The position numbers and the translations under genes were made by a program. The notes beneath the pieces are model-generated. The model was not told the DNA's origin. It searched no databases and was given only the letters and a program-made list of their open reading frames with translations. 41,167 bases of DNA, taken from positions 1 to 41,167 of IMG/VR virus record IMGVR_UViG_3300032321_000307; one strand, written 5' to 3'. This stretch comes from a virus (taxonomy: Duplodnaviria > Caudoviricetes). Positions within the stretch are counted from its first letter, which is position 1; each line of letters opens with the position of its first letter. Of the stretch, positions 826 to 33,983 are shown piece by piece.

Positions 826-2798
826 TGCCATTAAGTAAACTAGTATTTAAACCCGGTGTTAACCGAGACCAAACTAACTACGCTTCAGAAGGTGGTTGGT
901 ATGATACTCAGCTTGTCCGCTTTAGATCAGGTTATCCTGAAAAGTTTGGTGGATGGACTGTAGCTAACTTAAATGCTTATACGGATTCTGCGCGATCTAT
1001 ATTTTCGTGGTCTACAACTGATGGATCTAGCTTACTAGGTATAGGCACTAACTCAAGAGTTTTTGTAGGAGCAGGCACTACACTATATGATATAACTCCT
1101 GTTTTTGCTACCTACACAACTTCTACAACGCCAGATACTGATAATTGTATTGGTACTACAAACGGATCTAAAACTGTTACTGTAACTCTTACAGCGCATG
1201 GATTAACCTCACTTACTTACGTAACATTTAGTGGTATTACGGGACCTACGATTGGTGGCATCCCAATAGCTGAAATGAATACAACCGTGCAAATTACAGT
1301 TATTAATGCTAATACATTTACTTTTGAAGCAACAACTACTGCAACATCTACAACTACAGGACAAGGTGGTACTGCTATTACTGCTGTGTGTTATATGCCA
1401 GCAGGGTTTCCTATTAATACAGCAGGTTTTGGTTGGGGTACAAGTACTTGGGGTCGAAGTACTTGGGGTTCTGGCTCTACAACTCCAATATTTCAACCTG
1501 CTAGACTTATTTATATGGATAAGTTTAATAATGATTTAATATTTAATACTCAATACGATACTGTATCAGGTGCAGGGGGTTACATATATTATTGGACATA
1601 TAATGCCGCATTTAGTAATGATGGTGTTTTATTAAATTCCATATCAGGAGCAGTAGCAGTACCACAAAAAGTAACTAAGATTATGTTTACACCGCAAGGT
1701 TTCTTGCTTGCATTGGGGTGTACTAATTATGATGCAACTGCAGCTGCACCTAACTACCTAGGAACTTATGATCCGCTTCTTATTCGTTGGTCTAATGTTG
1801 ATCCTGATATTGGACCTGAACCTGAAAATTGGCAACCTACTGTAACTAACACGGCAGGGTTCTTACGGCTTCAATCAGGTTCTAGAATCGTTACTGCAAT
1901 TAATACTCGACAAGAAACACTTGTGTTTACTAACCTTTCTTTAACATCATTACAATTTTTAGGTACAGCTGAAGTATTTGCAATACAAGAGTTATCTCAT
2001 AATATATCTATTATTGGTCCCAATGCTCTTGTAGGTTCTAACAATATTACTTATTGGATGGGGCGTGATCGGTTCTATACTTATTCTGGTCGTGTTGATA
2101 CTTTACCTTGTACTATTAGGCAATACATATTTACTGACCTTAACTATGATCAAAGTTCACTTATTTTTGCAGGGGTTAACAATAAGTTTACAGAAATTAT
2201 TTGGTTCTATGCTTCAGCTGACTCTAATGAAATTGATCGTTATGTTGTATTTAATTATCTTGAAAATATTTGGTATTATGGACAACTAGAAAGAACCGCA
2301 TGGATTGATTCTGGTGTCTTTAATAACCCTGTAGGATTATCTGATGGTTGGGTATACCAACATGAAAGTGGTACTGACGATGGTCAACCACTAGGAGCGC
2401 CTCCTCTTCCTATCACTGCTTATATTCAGTCTGCTGATATTGATATTGAGGATGGCGATAAATTTATGTTAATACGTCGTGTTATACCAGATATTAATTT
2501 TATAGGTTCTGAGACCACTAATCCTGTTACAGGTGCTACAATTATTCCTGAAGCAGATATTACTGTGGGGGTACGTAACTTCCCTGGTGCCGCATCATCA
2601 ATTACCAACGCAGAAGGACAAACTACAGATGCTACAGTCGTAACTGCTACAGCTACAGTTGACCAATATACAAACCAAGTATTTATTAGGGCTCGAGGCC
2701 GACAAATGAACTTTAAGATTGCGTCTGACACAGTAGGTACACAATGGCAACTAGGTTTACCAAGAGTTGATGCACGACCAGATGGAACGAGGTCATAA
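825..2798 (+). CDS. Tail tubular/DNA stabilisation protein (P22 gp10-like)
   Basis: 657 aa, beta-rich; N-terminal 'FKPGVNRDQT..EGGWYD..VRFR.GYPEKFGGW', 'IRWS', C-terminal 'RARGRQ...W.LG.PR.D.RPDG'; late-gene position. Confidence 0.7.
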   Translation: MPLSKLVFKPGVNRDQTNYASEGGWYDTQLVRFRSGYPEKFGGWTVANLNAYTDSARSIFSWSTTDGSSLLGIGTNSRVFVGAGTTLYDITPVFATYTTSTTPDTDNCIGTTNGSKTVTVTLTAHGLTSLTYVTFSGITGPTIGGIPIAEMNTTVQITVINANTFTFEATTTATSTTTGQGGTAITAVCYMPAGFPINTAGFGWGTSTWGRSTWGSGSTTPIFQPARLIYMDKFNNDLIFNTQYDTVSGAGGYIYYWTYNAAFSNDGVLLNSISGAVAVPQKVTKIMFTPQGFLLALGCTNYDATAAAPNYLGTYDPLLIRWSNVDPDIGPEPENWQPTVTNTAGFLRLQSGSRIVTAINTRQETLVFTNLSLTSLQFLGTAEVFAIQELSHNISIIGPNALVGSNNITYWMGRDRFYTYSGRVDTLPCTIRQYIFTDLNYDQSSLIFAGVNNKFTEIIWFYASADSNEIDRYVVFNYLENIWYYGQLERTAWIDSGVFNNPVGLSDGWVYQHESGTDDGQPLGAPPLPITAYIQSADIDIEDGDKFMLIRRVIPDINFIGSETTNPVTGATIIPEADITVGVRNFPGAASSITNAEGQTTDATVVTATATVDQYTNQVFIRARGRQMNFKIASDTVGTQWQLGLPRVDARPDGTRS

Positions 2799-3073
2799 TG
2801 TCTAATGTTCGTAGACCAAAAGCGCCTAACTTACCTATACCTACGATAGCGTATAGTCAGACGTACACAGAATCTTTTAGTAATGCATTACGTTTATATT
2901 TTAATACTGTGGATTCGGTTTTTAATGACTTATTAACCCCAACTGCAGGCACTACAGCCGCTCGTCCAACCGTTGGTTTACAAATAGGACAACAATATTT
3001 TGATACAACAATTAATAGACCCATTTGGTGGAACGGAACTAATTGGATAAATGCTGCAGGAACTGTGGTTTAA
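2798..3073 (+). CDS. Small virion/tail-associated protein
   Basis: 'LRLYFN' plus C-terminal 'GTTAARP...GQQYFDTT..PIWWNGTNW' motif typical of tail-fibre/tailspike C-termini; start overlaps upstream stop. Confidence 0.6.
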   Translation: MSNVRRPKAPNLPIPTIAYSQTYTESFSNALRLYFNTVDSVFNDLLTPTAGTTAARPTVGLQIGQQYFDTTINRPIWWNGTNWINAAGTVV

Positions 3074-7071: not shown

Positions 7072-8607
7072 ATGAACATTATTAAAATTCAAGATCAATT
7101 AAAAAATGCACCAGATGATGCATTAGTTGGTTATGTTCAAAACCCTACAGGCCATGTACCAACCTATTTAGCGTTAAGTGAATTACAACGCAGAAAAGAA
7201 ATGCGTAATAGTTATCAAGCTAACAAGCCTGAAGAAAAAACTGTAGCTGAAGATTTAGTTCAAGAAGCTCAACCTCAACCACAACCTCAAATGGCGGGTG
7301 TAGGTGCTTTACCTGCAGGACAACCTATGATGCAAGCAATGGCTCCTCCGCCTGAAATGCCTGTACAACAAATGGCTCAAGGTGGTTTAGCTGAACTAGA
7401 TGTAGGTGATATGTTTAATGAACAAAGCTACGCTGATGGTGGTATTGTAGCATTCGGTGATGGTGGCGATGTACCAGGTTATGCTGGTCCTGATGGTTCT
7501 TATGTTAACCCAGAATTATATGGTAGACCAACTGATCAATCATTTTTAGACAAACTTAGATTTGGTTTTTCAAGTCCAAGTGAAATAAGAAAAGCTAATA
7601 TGGGCGAAGGCATGCCACAAAACCCATTTATGGGGTATATGCCAGATGCTAATAGAGACCCAATGACTATTCAAGCTCAAATAGGTGAACTCTATAGACA
7701 ATTAAATATTCCTGGTGTAGATAAAACTGCAATATATCAACAAATTAATGAGTTAGAAGGACGTAATAGACGCCCATATGACATGGGTGGATACCAACTA
7801 ACTAAAGAAGATTTAGCTCCGCCTCCGCCACCTAAACCACAAAATCAAGACAAAGGAAAAGGTGGTCCTAACCCATTTGATGCTATGATGTCTAAAGAAA
7901 AATCTTTAAAAGAACTAAGTGATGAATATATGGGTCTTCTTGGTGAAGATAAAGGAGCTAAAAGATTATCTGAAAGATTAGCTAAGATGGATGAAAAAGC
8001 TGCTAAACAAGAAGAACAAGCGCCGTGGTTAGCGTTAGCTAAAGCTGGTTTTGAAATGGCTAATACTCGTGCAGAATATGGTAAAGCTGCTGAAACTCCG
8101 TTTGCTTCTCTTGCTCGAGGTGCTGGTGCGGGTATTAAAGATTATGCTGAGTCTAAAGAAGCACTTAATAAACTTGAAGAAAAACGTTTCCTCCTTGATA
8201 ATGAATTATCTAAACAATCTCGTGCGGAACAAGTTGCAGCTCTCAATTATGGTAAAGATAGTAAGCAACACACAGAACAAATTAATAAAACAATTCAGTT
8301 AGCTAAGATGAAAGATAATACTGAAAGAGAACTTGCCAACTTAGAAAATAATACTAAACTTATTACTGCTATGCAAAAAGGCGCTTGGGATAAAAAAGAT
8401 TATTTCAAAGCTTATAATGAAGTCGCAGATAGTGATGCATTCAAACAAGCTGAAAAAGCTTACGTAAATGATAAAGGCTCTTGGGTAGTAGGTAGTCCAC
8501 AATATAATCAGTGGAAAGATCTTACAATTAAACAACTTATTAGACAATCAGAATCGCCATCTGGTACTACTGCAGATGCATGGACAAACTTCAAAAAATC
8601 TAACTAA
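7072..8607 (+). CDS. Internal virion/ejection protein
   Basis: 511 aa; 'MAQGG', 'YADGGIVAFGDGG' motifs, coiled coil; position among ejection genes; AAGGA RBS. Confidence 0.6.
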   Translation: MNIIKIQDQLKNAPDDALVGYVQNPTGHVPTYLALSELQRRKEMRNSYQANKPEEKTVAEDLVQEAQPQPQPQMAGVGALPAGQPMMQAMAPPPEMPVQQMAQGGLAELDVGDMFNEQSYADGGIVAFGDGGDVPGYAGPDGSYVNPELYGRPTDQSFLDKLRFGFSSPSEIRKANMGEGMPQNPFMGYMPDANRDPMTIQAQIGELYRQLNIPGVDKTAIYQQINELEGRNRRPYDMGGYQLTKEDLAPPPPPKPQNQDKGKGGPNPFDAMMSKEKSLKELSDEYMGLLGEDKGAKRLSERLAKMDEKAAKQEEQAPWLALAKAGFEMANTRAEYGKAAETPFASLARGAGAGIKDYAESKEALNKLEEKRFLLDNELSKQSRAEQVAALNYGKDSKQHTEQINKTIQLAKMKDNTERELANLENNTKLITAMQKGAWDKKDYFKAYNEVADSDAFKQAEKAYVNDKGSWVVGSPQYNQWKDLTIKQLIRQSESPSGTTADAWTNFKKSN

Positions 8608-11600
8608 TGGCTACATACAGTATTCAAGGACCAGATGGTAAAACCTACACCATAGATGGACCAGATGGCGCTTCAAAAGAAGAAGTTGTCGCAGCCATAC
8701 AACGTAAATCTATAGAAGCTTCTACACCTCGTGATTACACATTAGGTGAAATTGTAGGTAAAGGTTTTACTCGCGGTGCTAAACAAATCGGTTCTGCAAT
8801 AGGCGATGTATTACCTGCTATGGGGGCTAGTGCGCTTGGTTTTGATGAATATGCCAAACGTCAAATGGCAGAAGCTGCGGCTACTCAAGAAGAAATTGCT
8901 CGTAAATACGCTCCCCAATATGGATCTACCAAAGACATACAGGGTGTAGGTGATGCTCTTAAATATGCATTAGAAGCTGTTTCAGAACAAGGTCCTAACA
9001 TTGCTACATCCCTTATTCCTGGTGTTGCTGGTGCTGGTGTAGCGGGTGCTTTAGCTAGACGTGGTGTTGTTGGCGCTGCTGAAACAGCTGCTAAAGAAGT
9101 AGGGGAAGCTGCATTAACTGCAGGAGCTAAGCAAGCTTTATTAAAAGAATCTGCTGCTGATATTGCTAAAAAGCAAGCTATGGGTATGAATCTTGGTGTT
9201 TATCTTGGTTCATTCTCTCAAAACACTCCTGAAGTATTCCAAAATATTTATAACCAAACTGGTGAATTAGCTCCCGGTGCGGCGCTCCTTGCAGGCTCAG
9301 TAAGTTCTGCGCTTGATTCTGCTCTACCTGCTTTTATACTTAAAAAGATTACTGGTCCTGCTAAGGTTGGACTAATAGAAAAAATACTTGAAGACTCAGG
9401 TATGCAAAAAGGTATTATCCGTAAGGCTGTATCAGCGCTTCCTGAAGCTGCGGCTATGGAAGGATTAACTGAAGGTACTCAAGAAGCCATCAGTATGGCA
9501 GCAGAACAATTCATATCTCAGAATAAAGACGTATTTAACTCAGAGGGTTGGAATCGTATTATTGAGAGTGCGATTAAAGGTGCGGTTGTAGGCGGAGTAT
9601 TTGGTGGTGCATCAGGTGCTATTGAAGGAGCTAAAGAGAAATTCACTAAGCCTATTATGCCTAGTACCCAAGAGCCGACACCTGGTACTGAACCTACTCC
9701 AACTGATTTACCTCCTATTACCCCGTTATCGCCTAGTGATGTCACTATTAACAAAGCCCTCTTCGTTGACGAAGATCTCATAAATACACTTGGTTTACCT
9801 AAAAACGCTGGTATAGTTAAACGTATTAAAGACCTCGAAATTAACGAAGATAATGCCACAGTTATTAAAGCTGAACTTAGTAAGTATCAAGGTGATGACG
9901 TAGTAAAAGAAAATATAAACAAATTATTTGATAGACCAGAATTTCAAGGAGTTCAAATTGGACAACAACCTAGAGGAACTACTGCCACAGGACTTGGAGA
10001 TGATATTTCAGTATCTAATGGATCCACTAAGAAGGCCCCTGCCGGTAAGGTTGCAGACGTTGACGGAGCTGGAGTTACTGGGGCTGGAATTGATGCTACA
10101 GAACTTAATGCAAGAGTTGAGGGAAGCGAAGCAGCTGAAACAAATACACTAACTAAGTCAGCACTAGATCTACTTAAATCCGTAGCAGACGGTGGCGTGC
10201 CTGCGATGATGACTAACAACCTACGTAAAATTGCGATAGATAATGGCATTAAAGACATCACACCTGCATGGACACCTAACCAAGTTATTGAAGCACTACA
10301 AACTAAATTAGACGCAGCACCTGCCGCACCAACAATTAAAATCAATAAAGCTCCTGAAGTTCTTAAACAAGAACCTGAACTAACCCCAGAAGAAATCACT
10401 GCGGCAAACGCGCCTAAAAAACAAACTAAATATGACTACTCAGGTATAACTCCGTTATTAAATCAAGCTCTTAAAGAAGGTATTATCTCAAATGAGAACT
10501 TTCAACAAGCTCAAAAGATGATGGAGAATGATACATTTAGTCCTCTTGAGATTGCTGCACAACTAGAGAATGCACAAAAACAACGAGAAGCTGGTGTAAC
10601 GGGTACAGGTAAAAAAGTATTACCTCCTGAACAACAAAAAGTAGCTAATGCTTGGAATAACTTTAGTAAGCGAGTTAAGTTTGACGAATTAGTTGACCAA
10701 GATCAAGCTGTAATTACAGACGCGTTTAACAATGGAAAACTTGATAGAGACTTAGTAGACGAAATTATTCAAGATAGTGGATACTATGACTACTCTAAAA
10801 AAGATGCTGCTAAAGATATGAGTATTGTTAATACTATGGAAGAGCATGTAGATATTCACGATGCAGTTAAAGGTTCAAAAACATTAGGCCAAGCATTAAA
10901 AAACGTTTTAGATAAGCATCCTAATATGTTATTACCTGCACAATCGAAGTTAATCAATCGATTACTCAATGTTAGAAAAGCAGTTAATGCTAAGTTTAAT
11001 CATAACCCAACTAAGTCTTCGCCTCTAACTACAGATGATAGAGTAGCAGTAGGTCACTATACTCAAAACGCTCACGAAGTTACTCTATGGCAAGAGGGTG
11101 GACTAAAAACACTACTCCATGAAGCAGTGCATGCAGCTGCAATAACAGAGATGTATAACCATATTGTTAAATCAGCTAAACGTAGTGGCAATAACTATAT
11201 TAAAGATGCTAGAGGTAGATTGATATGGGAGCATAAGGTTAAAAATAATAGCCCTATTGGTAAACAACTTTTTGCTATATTTAACGCAGCGAAAGAAGCA
11301 GCAGCAAAAGAAAAAAGAGAATACTACGGACTCACTAATATAGATGAGTTTATTGCTGAGACATTCTCAGATCCTATGTTCCAACTATTCTTAACAAGAC
11401 AGCCAAGTGTTTCTAATAAACCAGGCTCTAACTTATTACAAGACTTCTTAAATGCAATTAGAGAGATGTTAGGTGTACCTCCAAATCAAAAAACTATGTT
11501 TGATGACGTTGTTAATTTATCACCAACTTTATTTAAAGGTAAGCAAAATGTATTAGATAAAGCGATAGATGCATTGTCAGGTACAGAATATAACATGGTA

Positions 11601-14423
11601 TATAAAGGCGGTGTTGATCCAACTGGCGCTAGAAATATACTTAGTTCTATTGGTCAAACAGTTAAAGATTTGCCTGCATATAACTCAACCATTGCTAAAG
11701 AAGTACGTAATGCAACCTCTCTACTACCAGATAATATGAAAGCATTAGCTTTATCCTTCATGTCATTACCTCAAAAAGTAGAGTTATTTGCGGATAGATT
11801 ACCTGTATTAAAAGACATGCTTAAAATACTTGAATTGCGTGGGGCTAGAGTTGAAGAGCTTCATAAAGAAGTAGAAAACATGACGTTTAACGGTATTGAG
11901 ACAATTAAGAAATTTAGTCCTGAAGTTGTTGCTAAGTTTAATAAGATTGGTTCAGAGTTATCTGCTAGAAAAATTGATCCTAGATTAACTGAGTCACAAC
12001 AAACTAATTGGGACGAACAACTTATTAGAGCTTGGAAAAACTTACCAGAAGAATTAACAAGCGATAAAATTATAGGTGAAAAAACAGTTTCAAGAATAGT
12101 TGATGGCGTTGAAGTTAAAGTTAAACTACCTGTACGTAAAGGTTTAGCATACCAAATAGCAGATAGGTATGAAGAGTATCGTCACCAAATTATAGATAAC
12201 GTTGAAAGAGTTGCTGGTGGTAATATGGCGGCTGATCTTCGTAAACGCTTTGAGAAAAACAAAATATCATTCTACTTACCATTAAGACGTAAAGGTAACT
12301 ATCGTTTAGCTTATTTTGATAAGTTTGGTAAAGAAAGAACTATTGAACATTTTGAAACCCCTGCTGAATTAGAAAGGGCAAAAGAAAAAGCTCTTAAAGC
12401 TGGAGCTACTAAAGTTGAATCCTCATTAATAACTAGACAAGTTAATTATAAAGAAACACCACCATTAGGTTTTGTTAAAGAAATTATTGATACATTAGAT
12501 AAGAGCATTGAAGCATCACCAGAAAAAGATGATCTTATTAACGAAATATATAAAATGTATCTAAATTTATTTCCTGATGATTCTATTCGCCAACAAATGC
12601 AAGAACGTCAAGGTATCCCAGGTTATATTGAAGATATTGTAGGTGGCTTTGCTGATACTGGATCACGTCTATCTTTACAACTATCTAACTTAGAATATAA
12701 ACCTCAACTTGATGCTGCATTTAAAACATTAGATGAACAACAAAGAGAATTTATTAACGGTAATCCAGACAAAAACATACCTCCACATGATGACTTAAAA
12801 GAAAATGCCATGGTGTCTCAAGTAGTACAGGATATGAATGGACAAAGAAAGTTTATTGAAAACCCTGTAGCTGATTCGATATCTGCTCAATTAAGTTGGG
12901 TAAGTTATATTTGGAACATTGCAGGTAATGTATCTTCAGCTATTATCAACTTAACACAGGTTCCTATGGTAGTTATGCCAATGTTAGGTGGGGAATATAC
13001 ATGGAATGAAGCTTATGATGCATTAAGCACTGCCTATAAAATGTATTTCAAAGGTGGTTTATTCAATGATAATAATAGAAACTTCTTACCTGATCATACC
13101 TTTGGCGCTAACTTAAAACCAGGTGATAAACACTATAAACTCTATCATGCTGCGCTAGGTCGTTCTACTATACGTCGTGGTATTGGTTACGAACTTAATG
13201 AGTTAAGACAAAAATCAGCGGAAGATTTTACCGGAACTAAAGCTAAGATTTATACTAGCCTAGGTTGGATATTCCAAAACTCTGAACGTATGAATAGAGA
13301 AGTAACTCTGATTGCTGCTTATGATTTAGAAATGGCTAGGTTAGCTAAGAAAGGTATTACAGGTGAGAAAGCTGTAGATGCTGCGATTGAAAAAGCTATT
13401 GAAACAACTACCCGTGCACACTCTCATGCATTATCAGAAGCTGGTCCTAAGATGTTCCAAAACGGTATAGGTAAGGTAGCATTTACTTTTAAACGTTTTG
13501 CCCAAGCACAGATTTATAATATGGCTAGATTATTCTATGTAGCTACACGAAATATGCCAACTAAAGAACGTGAAATTGCACGTAAACAATTTTTAGGTAT
13601 TTTGGGTATGACGTATGTATTCTCAGGTCTACAAGGCTTACCAGTTTATGGTGCGCTTAATATGTTATCTTCAGCTATCGCAGGTATGTTTGGTGATGAC
13701 GATGAACCATATGACTTTGACGAAGAAGTCCGTGAGATTTTTGGTGACATTGGATACAAAGGCCCACTCAATAAACTTTTAAATATTGATATAGCAGCAA
13801 GAACAGGTTTCAATGGCATGGTATTCCACGACGATCCACGTCGTTTAGCTGAGGTTGGATTTGGTCCATACTTTATAGAACACTTCTTTGGTCCTGCATA
13901 TCAAACATTAGCAGTTAATCCTACCCGTGCAGCTAAATTATGGGATGAAGGCCAGACTGAAAGAGCAATTGAAACCTTGATGCCATCGGCACTTAAAAAC
14001 ATGATGAAAGGTTTTAGATTTGCAACTGAAGGTGCAACTACAACTAATGGTGTTAAAATAATTGATGATCCTAATGCACTTAATAATCTATTACAGATAT
14101 TTGGTTTTACTAATGCAGATTTGTCAGAAGCTTATACTCGTGCAAGTTCATTAAAAAAATATGAAAAGCATATATTAAATCGTAGAACTCATTTATTAGA
14201 TACGTATTATCTAGCTAAATCAAACGGTGATACAGAAATGATGAATAAAATTAGAGATGACATGCGTACCTATAGTTCTAAAGTACCAGTAGGCATAAAA
14301 ATTACTGAAGATACTATTTCAAGATCTGTTAGAGGTCACAAAGAAAGAGAAAAACAAGCTAAAGATGGCGTTGTTATTAGTAAGAAACTAAAGAATCAAG
14401 CCGTGGAAGAAGCGGGAGCTTAG
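8607..14423 (+). CDS. Large internal virion (polyvalent-type) protein with a zincin-like HExxH domain
   Basis: 1938 aa; N-terminal 'GPDGKTY.I.GP', Ala/Gly helices, 'TLLHEAVHAA ... NIDEFIAE.FSDP.FQ..L', helical C-terminal region. Confidence 0.7.
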   Translation: MATYSIQGPDGKTYTIDGPDGASKEEVVAAIQRKSIEASTPRDYTLGEIVGKGFTRGAKQIGSAIGDVLPAMGASALGFDEYAKRQMAEAAATQEEIARKYAPQYGSTKDIQGVGDALKYALEAVSEQGPNIATSLIPGVAGAGVAGALARRGVVGAAETAAKEVGEAALTAGAKQALLKESAADIAKKQAMGMNLGVYLGSFSQNTPEVFQNIYNQTGELAPGAALLAGSVSSALDSALPAFILKKITGPAKVGLIEKILEDSGMQKGIIRKAVSALPEAAAMEGLTEGTQEAISMAAEQFISQNKDVFNSEGWNRIIESAIKGAVVGGVFGGASGAIEGAKEKFTKPIMPSTQEPTPGTEPTPTDLPPITPLSPSDVTINKALFVDEDLINTLGLPKNAGIVKRIKDLEINEDNATVIKAELSKYQGDDVVKENINKLFDRPEFQGVQIGQQPRGTTATGLGDDISVSNGSTKKAPAGKVADVDGAGVTGAGIDATELNARVEGSEAAETNTLTKSALDLLKSVADGGVPAMMTNNLRKIAIDNGIKDITPAWTPNQVIEALQTKLDAAPAAPTIKINKAPEVLKQEPELTPEEITAANAPKKQTKYDYSGITPLLNQALKEGIISNENFQQAQKMMENDTFSPLEIAAQLENAQKQREAGVTGTGKKVLPPEQQKVANAWNNFSKRVKFDELVDQDQAVITDAFNNGKLDRDLVDEIIQDSGYYDYSKKDAAKDMSIVNTMEEHVDIHDAVKGSKTLGQALKNVLDKHPNMLLPAQSKLINRLLNVRKAVNAKFNHNPTKSSPLTTDDRVAVGHYTQNAHEVTLWQEGGLKTLLHEAVHAAAITEMYNHIVKSAKRSGNNYIKDARGRLIWEHKVKNNSPIGKQLFAIFNAAKEAAAKEKREYYGLTNIDEFIAETFSDPMFQLFLTRQPSVSNKPGSNLLQDFLNAIREMLGVPPNQKTMFDDVVNLSPTLFKGKQNVLDKAIDALSGTEYNMVYKGGVDPTGARNILSSIGQTVKDLPAYNSTIAKEVRNATSLLPDNMKALALSFMSLPQKVELFADRLPVLKDMLKILELRGARVEELHKEVENMTFNGIETIKKFSPEVVAKFNKIGSELSARKIDPRLTESQQTNWDEQLIRAWKNLPEELTSDKIIGEKTVSRIVDGVEVKVKLPVRKGLAYQIADRYEEYRHQIIDNVERVAGGNMAADLRKRFEKNKISFYLPLRRKGNYRLAYFDKFGKERTIEHFETPAELERAKEKALKAGATKVESSLITRQVNYKETPPLGFVKEIIDTLDKSIEASPEKDDLINEIYKMYLNLFPDDSIRQQMQERQGIPGYIEDIVGGFADTGSRLSLQLSNLEYKPQLDAAFKTLDEQQREFINGNPDKNIPPHDDLKENAMVSQVVQDMNGQRKFIENPVADSISAQLSWVSYIWNIAGNVSSAIINLTQVPMVVMPMLGGEYTWNEAYDALSTAYKMYFKGGLFNDNNRNFLPDHTFGANLKPGDKHYKLYHAALGRSTIRRGIGYELNELRQKSAEDFTGTKAKIYTSLGWIFQNSERMNREVTLIAAYDLEMARLAKKGITGEKAVDAAIEKAIETTTRAHSHALSEAGPKMFQNGIGKVAFTFKRFAQAQIYNMARLFYVATRNMPTKEREIARKQFLGILGMTYVFSGLQGLPVYGALNMLSSAIAGMFGDDDEPYDFDEEVREIFGDIGYKGPLNKLLNIDIAARTGFNGMVFHDDPRRLAEVGFGPYFIEHFFGPAYQTLAVNPTRAAKLWDEGQTERAIETLMPSALKNMMKGFRFATEGATTTNGVKIIDDPNALNNLLQIFGFTNADLSEAYTRASSLKKYEKHILNRRTHLLDTYYLAKSNGDTEMMNKIRDDMRTYSSKVPVGIKITEDTISRSVRGHKEREKQAKDGVVISKKLKNQAVEEAGA

Positions 14424-17469: not shown

Positions 17470-17567
17470 ATTGCATTCGCTTTCTATTTTTTTAGACAAC
17501 ACTACCCCGCCACAATAAATTGTGTTTTTTGAAATTTACTACGGGGTATTCCTATTCTACTACTTTT

Positions 17568-20894: not shown

Positions 20895-20901
20895 ATGTGT
20901 A

Positions 20902-20931
20902 ACTATATATTAGCTACATAATGTATGTCAA
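20902..20931 (-). promoter_or_regulatory. Putative sigma70 promoter for the helicase-primase operon
   Basis: TTGACA-N18-TATAGT on the - strand just upstream of the SNF2 start. Confidence 0.55.
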
Positions 20932-20942
20932 GTACTATTTTA

Positions 20943-22517: not shown

Positions 22518-23010
22518 GTTCTTTTACCTCATTAACTAATTCTTCAAATGATAACGCATCTAAGTCTTCTTCAAACTCAATACTTAATATGTATCTTGTT
22601 GTTTCAAAATTATATACTGTGTGATTTACTTGTGTATTAAATAAATAGTAGGTCATGGGTTTATATTTAAGTTCTTCAATATCAAATACTGTGCCATGTT
22701 TATCAGGAGCAAATGCACATATACTTCTATCAAAAGGAGTTAACAACATATTGATACCAACACCTCGTCTAGTATCAGTGTGCCAATCGTAACAAACATA
22801 CGGATCTAATTTAAGAATACCTGCTATGAAGTTATGTTTAGTTAATAGCCATGCAAAGAATCTATCTTTAAATAGAAGATCAGGTGGTACTAGTTTAGCT
22901 TTAAAATTATAGTAATCCATCCATTCGCTAGGTTGCATAGCAAAGTCTAACAACTCAGATGATATTGTAGATTTTCTTTCTACTTCATAGTAACAATCAG
23001 CAGTCGCCAT
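22495..23010 (-). CDS. 2OG-Fe(II) oxygenase/cupin-like protein
   Basis: HxD in 'YDWHTD', distal His in 'LFNTQVNHTVYN', Arg in 'TRYILSI'. Start at MATAD with GGAG RBS. Confidence 0.7.
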   Translation of the reverse strand: MATADCYYEVERKSTISSELLDFAMQPSEWMDYYNFKAKLVPPDLLFKDRFFAWLLTKHNFIAGILKLDPYVCYDWHTDTRRGVGINMLLTPFDRSICAFAPDKHGTVFDIEELKYKPMTYYLFNTQVNHTVYNFETTRYILSIEFEEDLDALSFEELVNEVKEHEKNSTK

Positions 23011-24862
23011 AACTTTCTCCATAATGTGCTTCACAAGCGACGGGTAGCCCACTCGCCCAACCAGGAGGCGTTGACATAATGTCTACGATGAAGTCATTAG
23101 CTAACTTGACTTCGGGTGTTGGAACTACGCAGACTACCGCATCGTGAACAGTTAACACAGGACGATACTTCTTACTTACTTCTAACATTTGCTCACCCAC
23201 AATAATACGGGCAAGCGCTTGAACTACATTCTCTACTACTGATCCGCCCCATATAGATACCATACCTCTACGAGACTTATAAACAAATTTAGACTTAGCT
23301 TCTGATACATCCCATGTAAGACCGGGATACTGAATATAAAGTCCGTTGGGTAGTTTAATACCTTTTGGTGTAACTAATAAAGATTCATTACCTAAGTAAT
23401 ATGGTTTCTTATCTTTAGGCCATGATGCCATGTCTTGTAACGCGTCGTCACAATCACTCCACAACTTAATAACTTTATCATTAACTTCGCGATAAACTCT
23501 AACAAGATTCCTACATTCTTGCTCAGTAAGAATAGCCCCCGGCGGTGATGTCTTTAATGTATGTTGTAGCTTAGCCCATCCTGTACCATAGCCTAGGCCT
23601 AACGTACATGTCTTACCTACAAATCGTTCTGTCGCATCAGCTTTAGTAATTGGTCTAGCATATACTTTAGATGCAAACTCTGAGTAAACATCTCGTCCTT
23701 CCTTATACCACTGCACAATATCATCTTGTCCACTCAACCAAACTAATACACGCGCTTCAATCTGTGAAGAGTCGCAGTTAATTACTTGATGACCTTCAGG
23801 GGCTACGACTGCGTTCTTTAATGCTTTCTTTTTCTTATCTCTGGATGGTAAATTCTGGAAGTTAACCTTATCTGCTCCCGCCCAACGTCCTGTATGAGCG
23901 CCATAATATTTTAACGGAATAGGTAGTTTACCTTTGTTACGTGCACCAATACCAATAAACCTTTCAATGCGTGCCTCTTCCATGGTTGATTTAGTACCCA
24001 ACCGAACGCGACATAGTTCTTGAATAAATAAATCTTCGTGTTCAGTCAGTTCAATAAAGCCATTGTCGTTTTTAGCTAAGGCAAACGTAGGGTTTCCCGT
24101 TGCAGGACTTGTCTTCATTGGTACTTCTACGCCTAACTCGGTTAAGAGTTCTGCAAATTGTTTATTGGATGCTAACTTGGCTCTGACACATTCTTCTGAG
24201 TCACATTCTAATCGCTTCATTAAACCCTGTAACATCAAAGCTTTTTCTTCTCTTATTTCCTCAACTCTTTCTTGTAGTAATGCATCGTCAACCTCTAAGA
24301 CAGGCTCGGTATACATGCGTAACGTCATATCAATTAATTTGATTTCATTCTCAGGATAATCTTGTGCGAGGATTTGGAATAGTTTATACGTAAGTTCAAC
24401 ATCGTTGATACAATAATTTCCATATTGTAATAACTCATCTTCACTAAAATTTTCTAAGCGTTTGCCTTTGGCCTGAACTACTTCTGTGCCTTTAGCACCT
24501 AGTTCATATCGTTCGACTAACGATGCAAGACTTCCACCGGCATCGATTCCGTGTATTGCCCTAGCCATGCTGAGTGTGTCGAGGTAGAGATGTGGGATGA
24601 TATTAAAACGGAAAGACAATATACCACCATCGAACTGAGTATTATGACAGAGAAGCGCGGAGTTCTTCCAATCAATCTTCTCAAATTCATTCTTGATCTC
24701 TTGATGTGTGCCTGTAACCCACTTCGTAACACCACTATCAATCTTAATACCAACACCGATGACTTGGAATCTTTCATCTTTAATATATTCCTCCGTTGTA
24801 ATTCCGGATAAACTAAAACCTACATCGTAGTAGGTCTCAAAATCTAGTGTGACTAGTTGCAT
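22997..24862 (-). CDS. polA: Family A DNA polymerase with 3'-5' exonuclease
   Basis: ExoI 'LDFET', ExoII 'HNTQFD', ExoIII 'YCINDV', 'HTGRW', motif A 'DSSQIEAR', motif B 'RFVGKTCTLGLGYG', motif C 'VHDA'. Confidence 0.95.
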   Translation of the reverse strand: MQLVTLDFETYYDVGFSLSGITTEEYIKDERFQVIGVGIKIDSGVTKWVTGTHQEIKNEFEKIDWKNSALLCHNTQFDGGILSFRFNIIPHLYLDTLSMARAIHGIDAGGSLASLVERYELGAKGTEVVQAKGKRLENFSEDELLQYGNYCINDVELTYKLFQILAQDYPENEIKLIDMTLRMYTEPVLEVDDALLQERVEEIREEKALMLQGLMKRLECDSEECVRAKLASNKQFAELLTELGVEVPMKTSPATGNPTFALAKNDNGFIELTEHEDLFIQELCRVRLGTKSTMEEARIERFIGIGARNKGKLPIPLKYYGAHTGRWAGADKVNFQNLPSRDKKKKALKNAVVAPEGHQVINCDSSQIEARVLVWLSGQDDIVQWYKEGRDVYSEFASKVYARPITKADATERFVGKTCTLGLGYGTGWAKLQHTLKTSPPGAILTEQECRNLVRVYREVNDKVIKLWSDCDDALQDMASWPKDKKPYYLGNESLLVTPKGIKLPNGLYIQYPGLTWDVSEAKSKFVYKSRRGMVSIWGGSVVENVVQALARIIVGEQMLEVSKKYRPVLTVHDAVVCVVPTPEVKLANDFIVDIMSTPPGWASGLPVACEAHYGESYGDC

Positions 24863-24884
24863 GTATTTCCCTTAATAAATTAAT

Positions 24885-24965
24885 GCTATCTTATGCAAAC
24901 GACAGATAGCGGTGCCGTCAATTTATCTAACTCTTACTGAAGGAGTTAGACCACTTGCATTGTGG
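24885..24965 (-). ncRNA. Structured RNA unit B (proximal) in the polA leader
   Basis: CCAC-AAUGCAA-GUGG; hairpin UCUAACUC..GAGUUAGA; GACGGCAC; GCUAUCU-GUCGUUUGCAUA-AGAUAGC. Same architecture as unit A. Confidence 0.7.
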
Positions 24966-24972
24966 CGGAGTT

Positions 24973-25052
24973 ACTACCTTGTGCAATCGACAGGTAATGT
25001 GCCGTCCTATAATCCGACTTCGAGGAGGGAAGTCGCCCACTTGCACTATGGG
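24973..25052 (-). ncRNA. Structured RNA unit A (distal) in the polA leader
   Basis: CCCAU-AGUGCAA-GUGGG; CGACUUC..GAAGUCG; GACGGCAC; AUUACCU-GUCGAUUGCACA-AGGUAGU. G-U pairs work only on the - strand. Confidence 0.7.
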
Positions 25053-25062
25053 TTTGTATTGG

Positions 25063-25136
25063 TGAGCTACTCGCGGTTATATAATTGCAAAAATACCATC
25101 ACGAATTTATACATATAAATAAAGTGCTTTCGCTCA
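25063..25136 (-). ncRNA. Putative loop-E (S-turn)-containing RNA element
   Basis: UGAGC-GAAA-GC ... GC-GAGUA-GCUCA gives an AGUA/GAA internal loop flanked by helices. Confidence 0.4.
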
Positions 25137-25141
25137 TTAAC

Positions 25142-25399
25142 TTATTTCTTGTGCCTTTCATGTTCGTTTCTACATTCTACTGAACACCAACGTCTTGTAT
25201 CTTTTACAAGGTTACTACACCATAAACATTTGCCTGTATCATTAATTGGTGTTTCTGCCTGTGCATGTGCATTAGCTATTGCTACATCTACAATCTTTTG
25301 CGCGTATTCATTTGCTACATCTATATCGTCATCCAAAGAAAAATCTCCGCTTGTTCCTGTATTAGCTACAGGCTTATATATTAATTTGCTTAATCTCAT
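25142..25399 (-). CDS. TraR/DksA-like C4 zinc-finger protein
   Basis: DxxDxA ('DDIDVA'), helix, then 'CLWC...RRWCSVEC'. Confidence 0.7.
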   Translation of the reverse strand: MRLSKLIYKPVANTGTSGDFSLDDDIDVANEYAQKIVDVAIANAHAQAETPINDTGKCLWCSNLVKDTRRWCSVECRNEHERHKK

Positions 25400-26519: not shown

Positions 26520-26533
26520 GTTGACCTCCTTTT

Positions 26534-26565
26534 AAATGAGCGAAAGGTTTTGATACCTGTTCCCT
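26534..26565. repeat. 32-bp intergenic bipartite motif, copy 1 of 4
   Basis: AAATGAGCG-AAAGG-TTT-TGATACCTGTTCCCT. Confidence 0.9.
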
Positions 26566-26578
26566 CACTCGAATGAGT

Positions 26579-30432: not shown

Positions 30433-30647
30433 ACACCCTCCTCGTAAGTATCAATTTCAACATCGTCATATCCGTCCTCTAGGTATTCGTTCTTGATTGC
30501 GACTGCGTGTTGATAGGTTAGGTGTGTATGTTCCTCGCAACCCCCGACCCATACCGAGTAATTACCTAGTGGCAATACTTTATGATTGTCTTTGTGTTCG
30601 GTGTATATCTCTCGTGTGACTCGGTCTATTTCGTTAAATAAGTTCAT
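30429..30647 (-). CDS. Hypothetical early protein
   Basis: 'YSVWVGG.E...A......Y...GYDDV.I' motif; GGAGG RBS. Confidence 0.65.
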   Translation of the reverse strand: MNLFNEIDRVTREIYTEHKDNHKVLPLGNYSVWVGGCEEHTHLTYQHAVAIKNEYLEDGYDDVEIDTYEEGV

Positions 30648-31632: not shown

Positions 31633-32070
31633 TGTTGCCACTCATTTCTGTGTTTTGCGTGGTTTTTCGTTGTAAGTCCTTGATTATATTCATGTTGCCA
31701 TTGTTGCCACTTGGTCACTTTACAAATGGCTACGAAATACTAGGTTTTGAGAAAAGGGAAATGCTTGTAAGTGCTTGTTTTATATATATATAATATATTA
31801 TATTATTATTATTAATGCTTATTTTTTGTGCATGTTGCCATGTTGCCACTAAAAAAAGAGTATGAATGGGTTGTAAAATGCACTTGCTCGGTGTGACGAA
31901 TCCCTACCAAGTTTTCCAAGTTTTACCCCCCATGTCCTGTTTTTTTAGTGGCAACATGGCAACAAATCAATAAAATCAAGCACTTACGCAAAAAAAGTGG
32001 CAACAAACCAAGTTTTACATGGCAACAACCTAGTAAAATCAAGCACTTACATTGTCACCTTGTGGCAACA
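31633..32070. other. Probable replication origin: 5+5 oppositely oriented TGTTGCCA iterons, 4 IHF-like sites, AT-rich tract, 25-bp inverted repeat
   Basis: TGTTGCCA at 31633, 31693, 31702, 31833, 31841; TGGCAACA at 31949, 31957, 31998, 32020, 32063; WATCAA-N4-TTR matches at 31673(-), 31768(-, 1 mismatch), 31974, 32037; pure A/T at ~31778-31816. Confidence 0.75.
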
Positions 32071-32103
32071 TCTAGAATAACTCGGTTGGACTTGGTGAAA
32101 CCC

Positions 32104-32135
32104 AAATGAGCGCATGGCAATGATACCTGTTCCCT
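32104..32135. repeat. 32-bp intergenic bipartite motif, copy 2 of 4
   Basis: AAATGAGCG-CATGG-CAA-TGATACCTGTTCCCT. Confidence 0.9.
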
Positions 32136-32200
32136 ACCCCTCGCCGGTCGATCCCCCCTAAATTGAATACCTGACTAATTTTGTCAACTACTAAAAATAC

Positions 32201-32964: not shown

Positions 32965-32982
32965 GTAACGGGATTGAAACCA

Positions 32983-33014
32983 AAATGAGCGAATGGCACT
33001 GATACCTGTTCCCT
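32983..33014. repeat. 32-bp intergenic bipartite motif, copy 3 of 4
   Basis: AAATGAGCG-AATGG-CAC-TGATACCTGTTCCCT. Confidence 0.9.
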
Positions 33015-33027
33015 CCCAAAGGAAGGC

Positions 33028-33843
33028 CTAGGCCTCCCTCGTTGTAAAATCTAGAACCTTCTGAGCTAATGCACCAGCTTTCAAAATATTCTTAGAATCG
33101 TTTTTTAATACTTCTAACCAGCTTGCAATGTAATTGGCATGTTGTAACTGGCCGTCAATTTTTAAATGCGCGCATAGCATGGCCGAACCTAATTCTGCAA
33201 CTAGCTCTTCAAAGGCATAAGCTTGGTTCCCGAATCGTTTACCGAATGAACGATTCAATCGTGACTCGTGACCAGTCCAGTGTGCTAACTCGTGCAAGGC
33301 CGTTGCATAATAATCTGCAGTAGATTTGAATTGATTCTTTTCTGGTAACTGAATTGCATCAATTGAGGGCGCATAGAATGCGCGACTGCCTCCGAATGAA
33401 ATCTTAGCTTTTTGATTATTGATAAAAGCCTCGCATGATTCAATGGTTTCAATCTCGGTGCGCTCTTCATTCGATGCTGGCAATTCAAGGCCTTCAATCT
33501 GATCTGCATTAAATACAGTATAAGTTTTTAGCATGGGTATTTTTTTAATCTCATCTGAAGCGCTGTCTTTTACTTCCAGCGGACTGAAATATACAACTTG
33601 AATACCCTTAGCACCTTTTTTAACTTGCGCATCTACACTCTGCGCTTGCTTATATGTGCACCAGTAATTAGTGCCAGCTGGCATCATAGATAACTGAATG
33701 AAATTAATGCCGTTGTAATAACGTTTAGCGACTGGGTTATATGGTGCATCGATGCCGTTGCTATGCCATGGTTTTACCCAAGGCGCAGTGCCAGCCTCTA
33801 ACTGTTTAATAATTGAATCAGTAATTGTTTGAGCTATACTCAT
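33028..33843 (-). CDS. ardC: ArdC-family antirestriction protein (ssDNA-binding domain plus zincin-like domain)
   Basis: 'ITD.II..LEAG..PW.KPW', 'Y.GIN', 'TYKQA..V.KG.KG', 'TVFNADQ', 'YYATALHELAHWTGH..RL.R', 'YAFEELVAELGSA'. Confidence 0.92.
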   Translation of the reverse strand: MSIAQTITDSIIKQLEAGTAPWVKPWHSNGIDAPYNPVAKRYYNGINFIQLSMMPAGTNYWCTYKQAQSVDAQVKKGAKGIQVVYFSPLEVKDSASDEIKKIPMLKTYTVFNADQIEGLELPASNEERTEIETIESCEAFINNQKAKISFGGSRAFYAPSIDAIQLPEKNQFKSTADYYATALHELAHWTGHESRLNRSFGKRFGNQAYAFEELVAELGSAMLCAHLKIDGQLQHANYIASWLEVLKNDSKNILKAGALAQKVLDFTTREA

Positions 33844-33929: not shown

Positions 33930-33946
33930 GAAGCGCGCCAAATACA

Positions 33947-33978
33947 AAATGAGCGCATGGCCTTGATACCTGTTCCCT
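33947..33978. repeat. 32-bp intergenic bipartite motif, copy 4 of 4
   Basis: AAATGAGCG-CATGG-CCT-TGATACCTGTTCCCT. Confidence 0.9.
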
Positions 33979-33983
33979 CCCCT

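Follow-up and report, generated by a model that had tools for sequence, protein, structure and literature searches.

What is the structured element that precedes the family-A DNA polymerase gene (polA) of this phage, and does it act on polA or elsewhere? The window, by which we mean the whole stretch of DNA analysed, is a phage record of 41 kb (41,167 nt) with a completeness of 66% as estimated by CheckV. It contains genes for a portal protein, a terminase, polymerase A, an SNF2 helicase, an exonuclease and a DUF927 primase-like protein. The terminase is 48–53% identical to those of phage DSL-LC04 and the Pelagibacter phages HTVC023P and HTVC027P, and no cultured relative of the polymerase was found at more than 35% identity across the full length.

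The preliminary description had placed two units of one shared layout upstream of polA on the minus strand, the second of them ending 22 nt before the polA ATG. Both the units, here referred to as units A and B of module U, and the 22-nt spacing were confirmed. The features of the locus are listed below.

22997-24862, minus strand: family-A DNA polymerase gene (polA), downstream of unit B
24867-24873, minus strand: Shine-Dalgarno (SD)-like stretch of polA, without GGAG
24885-24966, minus strand: unit B, the second U copy; 84.8 bits with a covariance model built from unit B
24885-24891 paired with 24904-24910, minus strand: P3 of unit B, with its loop at 24892-24903
24912-24918, minus strand: pseudoknot strand of unit B
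24927-24949, minus strand: P2 of unit B
24940-24945, minus strand: tip of P2 in unit B, anti-Shine-Dalgarno-like (CUCCUU), partly within the stem
24950-24966, minus strand: P1 of unit B
24973-25052, minus strand: unit A, the first U copy; 70.6 bits with a covariance model built from unit A
24973-24979 paired with 24992-24998, minus strand: P3 of unit A, with its loop at 24980-24991
24999-25005, minus strand: pseudoknot strand of unit A
25015-25035, minus strand: P2 of unit A
25022-25028, minus strand: P2 loop of unit A, anti-Shine-Dalgarno-like (CCUCCUC)
25036-25052, minus strand: P1 of unit A
25060-25135, minus strand: E1, a second conserved RNA motif, known from 53 distinct sequences
25142-25399, minus strand: DksA-like zinc-finger gene, its stop codon 6 nt ahead of E1

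Other features of the record

Several other features were observed elsewhere in the window. An ArdC-like anti-restriction gene is located in the early arm (33028-33843), and a protein of 1938 aa with a DarB-like match is encoded at 8607-14423. A near-consensus sigma-70 promoter-like site, identified by eye, lies directly ahead of the helicase gene (20895-20942, minus strand). An element of 43 nt is present in four dispersed copies on the minus strand (26526-26568, 32096-32138, 32975-33017 and 33939-33981), which are located at gene junctions of the early arm; its 12-nt core is exact in three of five relatives. It ends in a stretch that we take to be boxA-like, and it is possibly an antitermination or operator site. 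The 353 nt at 31719-32071 are non-coding and origin-like: they contain an AT-rich run as well as several repeats, both direct and inverted. Also, a long imperfect hairpin (17503-17567, minus strand) follows a promoter-like stretch and precedes the window's own primase gene, and leaders that resemble it were seen in G001, G003, G004, G005 and G009.

Module U is a predicted double pseudoknot

Module U is predicted to be a compact RNA fold of 64–101 nt, the conserved core of which would combine a kissing-loop and an H-type pseudoknot. A descriptor that specifies pairing only, with no sequence letters, matched exactly two sites on the minus strand of the window and none on the plus strand, and no site was obtained in any of 60 Markov-resampled windows. 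Minimum-energy folding, which ignores pseudoknots, yielded z-scores of -3.07 for unit B and -0.58 for unit A, and thus provides support for unit B and none for unit A. No promoter-like or terminator-like site bounding the module was found on the minus strand around it.

Homologs were gathered from loci identified by the U motif, by the E1 motif and, blind to the RNA, by two proteins, the polymerase (39 loci) and the primase (77 loci). In total, 47 distinct U units of related, uncultured phages were obtained with a pairing descriptor, and all alignment counts refer to these units; row L505, the coordinates of which were wrong, was left out of alignment A3. The four helices are kept in the 47 units with 98.1% of the cells paired, a fraction that is inflated by a descriptor that itself demands pairing. 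A covariance model without the pseudoknot pairs recovered 23 units in the 77 primase loci, which is the same number as the descriptor, and 44 of the 46 matches to a pattern that left the P3 loop free were full units with an identical loop core.

Two-sided changes were identified in 11 of the 23 pairs across the 47 units. None of 500 shuffles reached as high a value, and controls with slid helices were 27–46% paired. Since kinship lets sequences beat such shuffles, the detail for each pair weighs more. All five pairs of P1 covary in the 47 units. Three of the five pairs of the H-type pseudoknot do so, one from C-G to both U-A and A-U, one from C-G to U-A and one being an outer pair, with G-U/G-C exchanges in the remaining two. 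Covariation in P3 is found at two of seven pairs and is confined to one lineage. The kissing helix between the P1 and P3 loops consists of 6 bp and is paired in 47 of 47 units; one pair covaries (A-U 42, G-C 4, G-U 1), including a switch between the near-identical units L055 and L030, one pair is U-G in two units, and four pairs are invariant. The compensatory loop-loop pairing that had been proposed from the window is retained in all 47 units, with one covarying pair among its six and four that do not vary. As judged from the alignment, the kissing helix is consistent with the data and thinly proven, and each of the two long-range helices (kissing and H-type) rests on few independent changes.

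Two details of the initial drawing were revised. The innermost pair of P3 is broken in 8 of the 47 units, while its 5' U is fixed in all 47 (the partner being A in 38, C in 7, G in 1 and U in 1), so P3 is better drawn with 6 bp and an L2 of 1 nt than with the 7 bp and 0-nt L2 of the first drawing. Likewise, GACGGCAC had been considered invariant, but only the GG and the A following the pseudoknot strand are fixed among the 47 homologs. The fixed unpaired bases are the A that opens the P1 loop, the A that follows the pseudoknot strand and the U of L2.

Among the 987 helix cells, 72 are G-U and none is A-C, which points to an RNA on the sense (minus) strand and disfavours a function at the DNA level or on the opposite strand. 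Along with the 11 pairs that show two-sided changes, this bias supports the earlier proposal that an RNA fold on the sense strand is under selection. A small opposite-strand gene with its start in P2 was also considered and rejected, since by eye an AUG in a shared frame is present in some families only.

No match to known RNA families

Neither the window nor 18 related loci matched any Rfam 15 family at the gathering threshold. At E-values up to 10, nothing was found over the units, the one weak match (E 8.8) being located outside them, and none of the ribozyme and antitoxin families matched U, in agreement with the earlier placement of the fold outside known classes. No tRNA or tmRNA was identified by ARAGORN in the window or in 15 loci. 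A pattern scan of GTDB returned 119 loci, none of which contained U according to the full descriptor (119 loci) or the covariance model (100 loci scanned). Among cultured phages, blastn turned up nothing beyond short matches expected by chance (E about 3), and the covariance model found no U in the parts of DSL-LC04 and HTVC027P that were scanned.

No description of U was found in the literature, and five exact motifs gave no paper. The accessible part of PMC10690425 lists candidate RNAs ahead of polA and DUF927 genes. Ten such candidates are marine, gut or engineered-system entries, and the list may overlap with U.

U is one module of a swappable cassette

The neighbouring module E1, which was overlooked in the preliminary description, has a closing stem of 4 bp, a GAA/AGUA internal loop, which we presume to be loop-E-like, an AU-rich variable interior and an ACCA tail. 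The closing stem is changed on both sides in 5 of the 53 sequences and the ACCA tail is present in 44. E1 has no Rfam match, and many relatives carry it ahead of polA or primase. In L144 and L502, E1-like elements of larger size contain other inserts. A third module, E3, was located in two loci.

L293, about 1190-1300, minus strand: E3
L106, about 2720-2870, plus strand: E3, followed by an HNH-like gene (annotated by eye)

In E3, the loop of a hairpin can pair with the 3'-terminal stretch that immediately precedes ACCA, and another conserved hairpin lies ahead of this hairpin. No Rfam or tRNA match to E3 was found, and the L293 array as a whole has no Rfam match at E-values up to 10.

We compared the occurrence of the modules at 35 polA loci in which the gene start is present, leaving out four loci without it. 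The 17 loci with a polymerase identity of at least 74% contain E1-U (7 loci), E1-U-U (2), E1 alone (6) or neither (2), whereas neither E1 nor U is present in the 18 more distant loci. The copy number of U at polA is thus 0–2, and the tandem arrangement first described, which holds for the window, is an exception among the 17 close loci (two units in 2, one in 7 and none in 8). The slot ahead of primase (77 loci) is occupied by a plain GC hairpin in 27 cases, E1 in 23 (one of them a partial copy that was assigned manually), U in 22, E1 with U in one and nothing in 4. On the primase tree (56 rows), the label of this slot has changed at least 12 times, as compared to a minimum possible of 4 and a mean of 28 for shuffled labels, and one pair of identical primase proteins carries different modules.

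Longer arrays were also identified (E1-U-E1, E1-U-E1-E3-U and E1-U-E1-U-E3), and in arrays such as E1-U-E1 and E1-U-E1-U-E3 intact U units are located far from any start codon. In 12 long genomes, which were chosen for carrying U, the module lies ahead of polA in 8, ahead of primase in 4 and never ahead of both, as based on whole-record model scans in 10 of the 12 genomes, with the primase start not located in G008. U also precedes an inserted gene for a protein of 149 aa. The movement of U between gene junctions suggests a role that is independent of the next gene. Taken together, the sequence comparisons argue that U is a real and new RNA fold, supported by covariation, and belongs to a mobile cassette of phage RNAs.

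Contigs of relatives at about 90–97% identity were recovered from two RNA-labelled lake-water runs of one study. In the region that corresponds to 24900-25150 of the window, a relative present in both runs (X1 and X2) keeps both U units but lacks 77 nt of E1, so U persists without most of E1. In X1 a contig stops at 24885; X2 runs past that point, so the stop does not mark the end of an RNA, and read-through of a stop codon into polA was rejected because of an in-frame stop inside E1.

These distributions bear on the idea, raised in the preliminary description, of an operator to which the phage polymerase would bind to control its own gene, in the manner of T4 gene 43. U is located 22 nt ahead of polA in the window and ahead of polA in 8 of the 12 genomes, but in the other 4 it precedes primase while their polA has neither U nor E1 upstream. 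It is absent from 8 of the 17 close polA loci and from many near-identical ones, and does not overlap the ribosome-binding site of polA. The operator is largely refuted and, in our view, highly improbable. The absence of a U-tract downstream of P3 makes the suggested role as a put-like antiterminator or terminator less likely.

A new self-cleaving ribozyme, or a processing element that cuts the array into separate RNAs, could also account for a position right after ACCA-ending modules in a fold of 64–101 nt with two pseudoknots, fixed core bases and a dispensable P2. Yet the anti-SD loop would be left unexplained, U has no match to any Rfam ribozyme even at an E-value of 10, and its helix order, compared by eye, is unlike the usual layouts of the hammerhead, HDV/theta, twister, twister-sister, pistol and hatchet ribozymes. 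Features of this kind do fit the criteria given in the accessible part of PMC10085705, although ten motifs picked on the same criteria showed no cleavage according to that part of the source. We consider cleavage by U quite improbable.

The P2 loop is complementary to translation starts

Where the preliminary description saw P2 as simply variable, we find in its loop the most informative signal of the module. The P2 stems were sorted by eye into 15 families. CUCC was identified in the P2 loop of 34 of the 47 units, representing 10 of the 15 families, a frequency that was reached for CUCC in none of 2000 shuffles and for the best of any 4-mer in 30 of 2000. The mean unpaired probability of CUCC is 0.84, and the motif is retained in two units that have no P2 stem. 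Over up to 8 nt, P2 loops match what we take to be the anti-Shine-Dalgarno sequence at the 3' end of 16S rRNA.

The loop region was compared to 1067 start windows, obtained with a heuristic of our own from the 12 long genomes, with 8 windows that overlap the element dropped. The match to the start windows was 9.99 nt, which none of 400 shuffles of the loop (8.80 nt) equalled, and the best of 25 draws of coding windows gave 9.39 nt, which is below the value at starts. The 3' arm of P2 with the linker matched the start windows no better than shuffles (168 of 300), and the whole linker beats shuffles in which the anti-SD core is kept in place (1 of 300 as good). CUCC is missing from 13 of the 47 units, and the signal outside CUCC comes from a single family, which is antisense to the SD end, the spacer and the AUG over 11–15 nt.

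Some individual matches are long. The loop of L049 matches the start of a gene in G006, taken by eye as SSB-like, over 15 nt, and those of L073 and L054 match the starts at 30647 (14 nt) and 30432 (13 nt) of the window. In the controls for gene-specific targeting, chimeric start windows were nearly as good (5 of 40), families with a match of at least 12 nt were not in excess (94 of 300), and an anti-AUG beside the anti-SD was not enriched (740 of 1000). There was also no preference for the own genome over foreign genomes (mean p 0.49 over 13 guides, 5 of which were below 0.25), and self-targeting is unsupported overall, with p-values of 0.08 and 0.04 for the window's two units against its own genes. 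These comparisons support the view that the P2 loop is antisense to translation starts as a class, and no specific target emerged from them.

None of the 28 leaders that follow CUCC units contains GGAG, as compared to 420 of 1075 starts overall, and the pairing of the P2 loop with its own leader has a rank of 0.50 against foreign leaders. Pairings of 5–6 bp with the own leader are present in some units, such as L043 and unit B of the window, and weak pairings of 3–6 bp with the own leader are possible.

Does U act in cis or in trans?

Our best explanation, which we put forward tentatively and from sequence patterns, is that U is an optional mobile module that perhaps acts in trans as a small RNA masking the ribosome-binding sites of other messages. 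This explanation draws on the lack of a tie to any one gene, the complementarity of the P2 loop to starts and the lack of GGAG in the own leaders. U would be transcribed within the replication operon transcript and released or protected as a stable RNA, the 3' double pseudoknot of which would resist 3'-5' trimming. The variable P2 loop would then pair with the ribosome-binding sites of other mRNAs and repress their translation, candidate targets being messages of the host, early phage messages or those of rival phages. A precedent is sRNA B11, the C-rich loop of which represses through pairing with the RBS, as described in the accessible part of 10.1101/2022.10.27.514065. Several observations speak against action in trans. 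Late genes have GGAG starts as well, and the phage might therefore suffer from a general blocker. A gene start is located within 50 nt in 39 of the 47 units, which is the usual picture of a cis-acting leader. The 13 units without CUCC, the lack of preference for own genomes, the few independent changes in the long-range helices and the lack of bounding promoter-like or terminator-like sites also count against it.

Such a portable cis-acting leader, riboswitch-like or bound by a protein, is the main rival and would dock its P2 loop on the downstream RBS after sensing of the ligand or protein. Alternatively, the structure would set the stability of the message or read-through from one gene to the next, a role that probably also falls to the plain hairpin found in this slot, and 73 of the 77 primase slots hold some stem. 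The fixed unpaired bases in the P1 loop, after the pseudoknot strand and in L2 would suit a pocket, the U of L2 pointing to a putative partner of the adenine type, and the 5–6 bp pairings in L043 and unit B are also as expected for a leader. However, the loop does not covary with its own leader, the own leaders lack GGAG, copies far from a start codon retain the loop, and the genes after U (polA, primase and the inserted gene) are unrelated. Moreover, at least 5 U in the 8 nt after P3 were found in only 4 of the 47 tails. We regard both forms of a cis-acting leader as rather doubtful.

A bolder form of the action in trans is that U is a programmable antisense platform, in which a fixed double-pseudoknot scaffold would carry a swappable guide loop that silences chosen starts of the host or of rival phages, the whole being traded between phages along with the other new folds of the cassette (E1 and E3). 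Some guides match SD-spacer-AUG regions of other group members perfectly over 13–15 nt, as such a platform would predict, but the control with chimeric windows cannot separate it from a generic anti-RBS loop, and on the sequence patterns at hand we think it unlikely.

U could instead be a decoy against host defence, its loop mimicking the 3' end of 16S rRNA and titrating a nuclease or protein that recognises it, with the ACCA-ending neighbours as decoys for other enzymes. The loop matches of up to 8 nt to the presumed 16S motif would fit, and the patchy presence, the arrays and the adjoining HNH-like gene in L106 resemble accessory cassettes. The family that is antisense to the spacer and AUG without CUCC is no rRNA mimic, though, and no Rfam antitoxin matches U. 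Toxins that cut the anti-SD region exist, as reported in the accessible parts of PMC12620021 and PMC12274833, but those toxins are mycobacterial and may not apply to the host of this phage. Both the decoy and its extension to the neighbours are decidedly unlikely in our assessment.

In either case, three or more unlisted RNA motifs make up the cassette, which is found in phages with a terminase about 50% identical to those of HTVC023P and HTVC027P. Action in trans, if true, would mean that structured anti-RBS RNAs are among the accessory tools of lytic phages, while action in cis, if true, would define a new class of riboswitch-like phage RNAs with a portable expression platform. Either would add to the short list of phage RNAs with a known function, and U is small enough for direct synthesis and probing.

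Comparison with known systems

The T4 gene 43 operator and the gene 32 pseudoknot are structured RNAs ahead of a phage replication gene that are fixed to one gene, whereas U is optional and moves between polA and primase. The gene 32 pseudoknot is also covered in the accessible part of PMC10690425. The lambda small RNA PreS/LPR1 acts on mRNAs by base-pairing, as is proposed for U; it enhances translation of the host dnaN, and neither a pseudoknot scaffold nor a swappable cassette is described in the accessible part of that study (10.1101/2024.10.31.621285).

Among riboswitches, guanidine-IV resembles U in that the loop of an upstream hairpin kisses the loop of a downstream hairpin, but its downstream hairpin acts as a terminator and ends in a poly-U tail (PMC11611296, accessible part), whereas U has no U-tract and most of its tails begin with ACY. 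U also differs from guanidine-IV in its second pseudoknot, its gene context and the lack of an Rfam match. The preQ1-III riboswitch consists of a pseudoknotted core and a separate hairpin with an anti-SD loop, a combination that is shared with U. Unlike preQ1-III, U is followed by leaders without GGAG, is not associated with biosynthesis or transporter genes and has no Rfam match.

Tandem small structured RNAs are also known from arrays of pseudo-ToxI, a mimic of a type III antitoxin, and from the stable RNAs of the T4 tRNA cluster. They share with the U arrays the tandem RNAs in a variable phage cassette, some of which end in a stem and ACCA. In the U arrays, however, the copies are not near-identical, unrelated folds are mixed and there is no antitoxin or tRNA match.

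RsaE and RNAIII of Staphylococcus are RBS-binding small RNAs with C-rich loops. The mycobacterial sRNAs B11/6C belong to the same kind and, like U, have an unpaired C-rich loop complementary to the SD (10.1101/2022.10.27.514065, accessible part). U has no sequence or Rfam match to the B11-type sRNAs, and its activity as an RNA is a prediction. A further difference is that U belongs to a phage cassette and combines a variable loop and stem with a conserved double-pseudoknot core.
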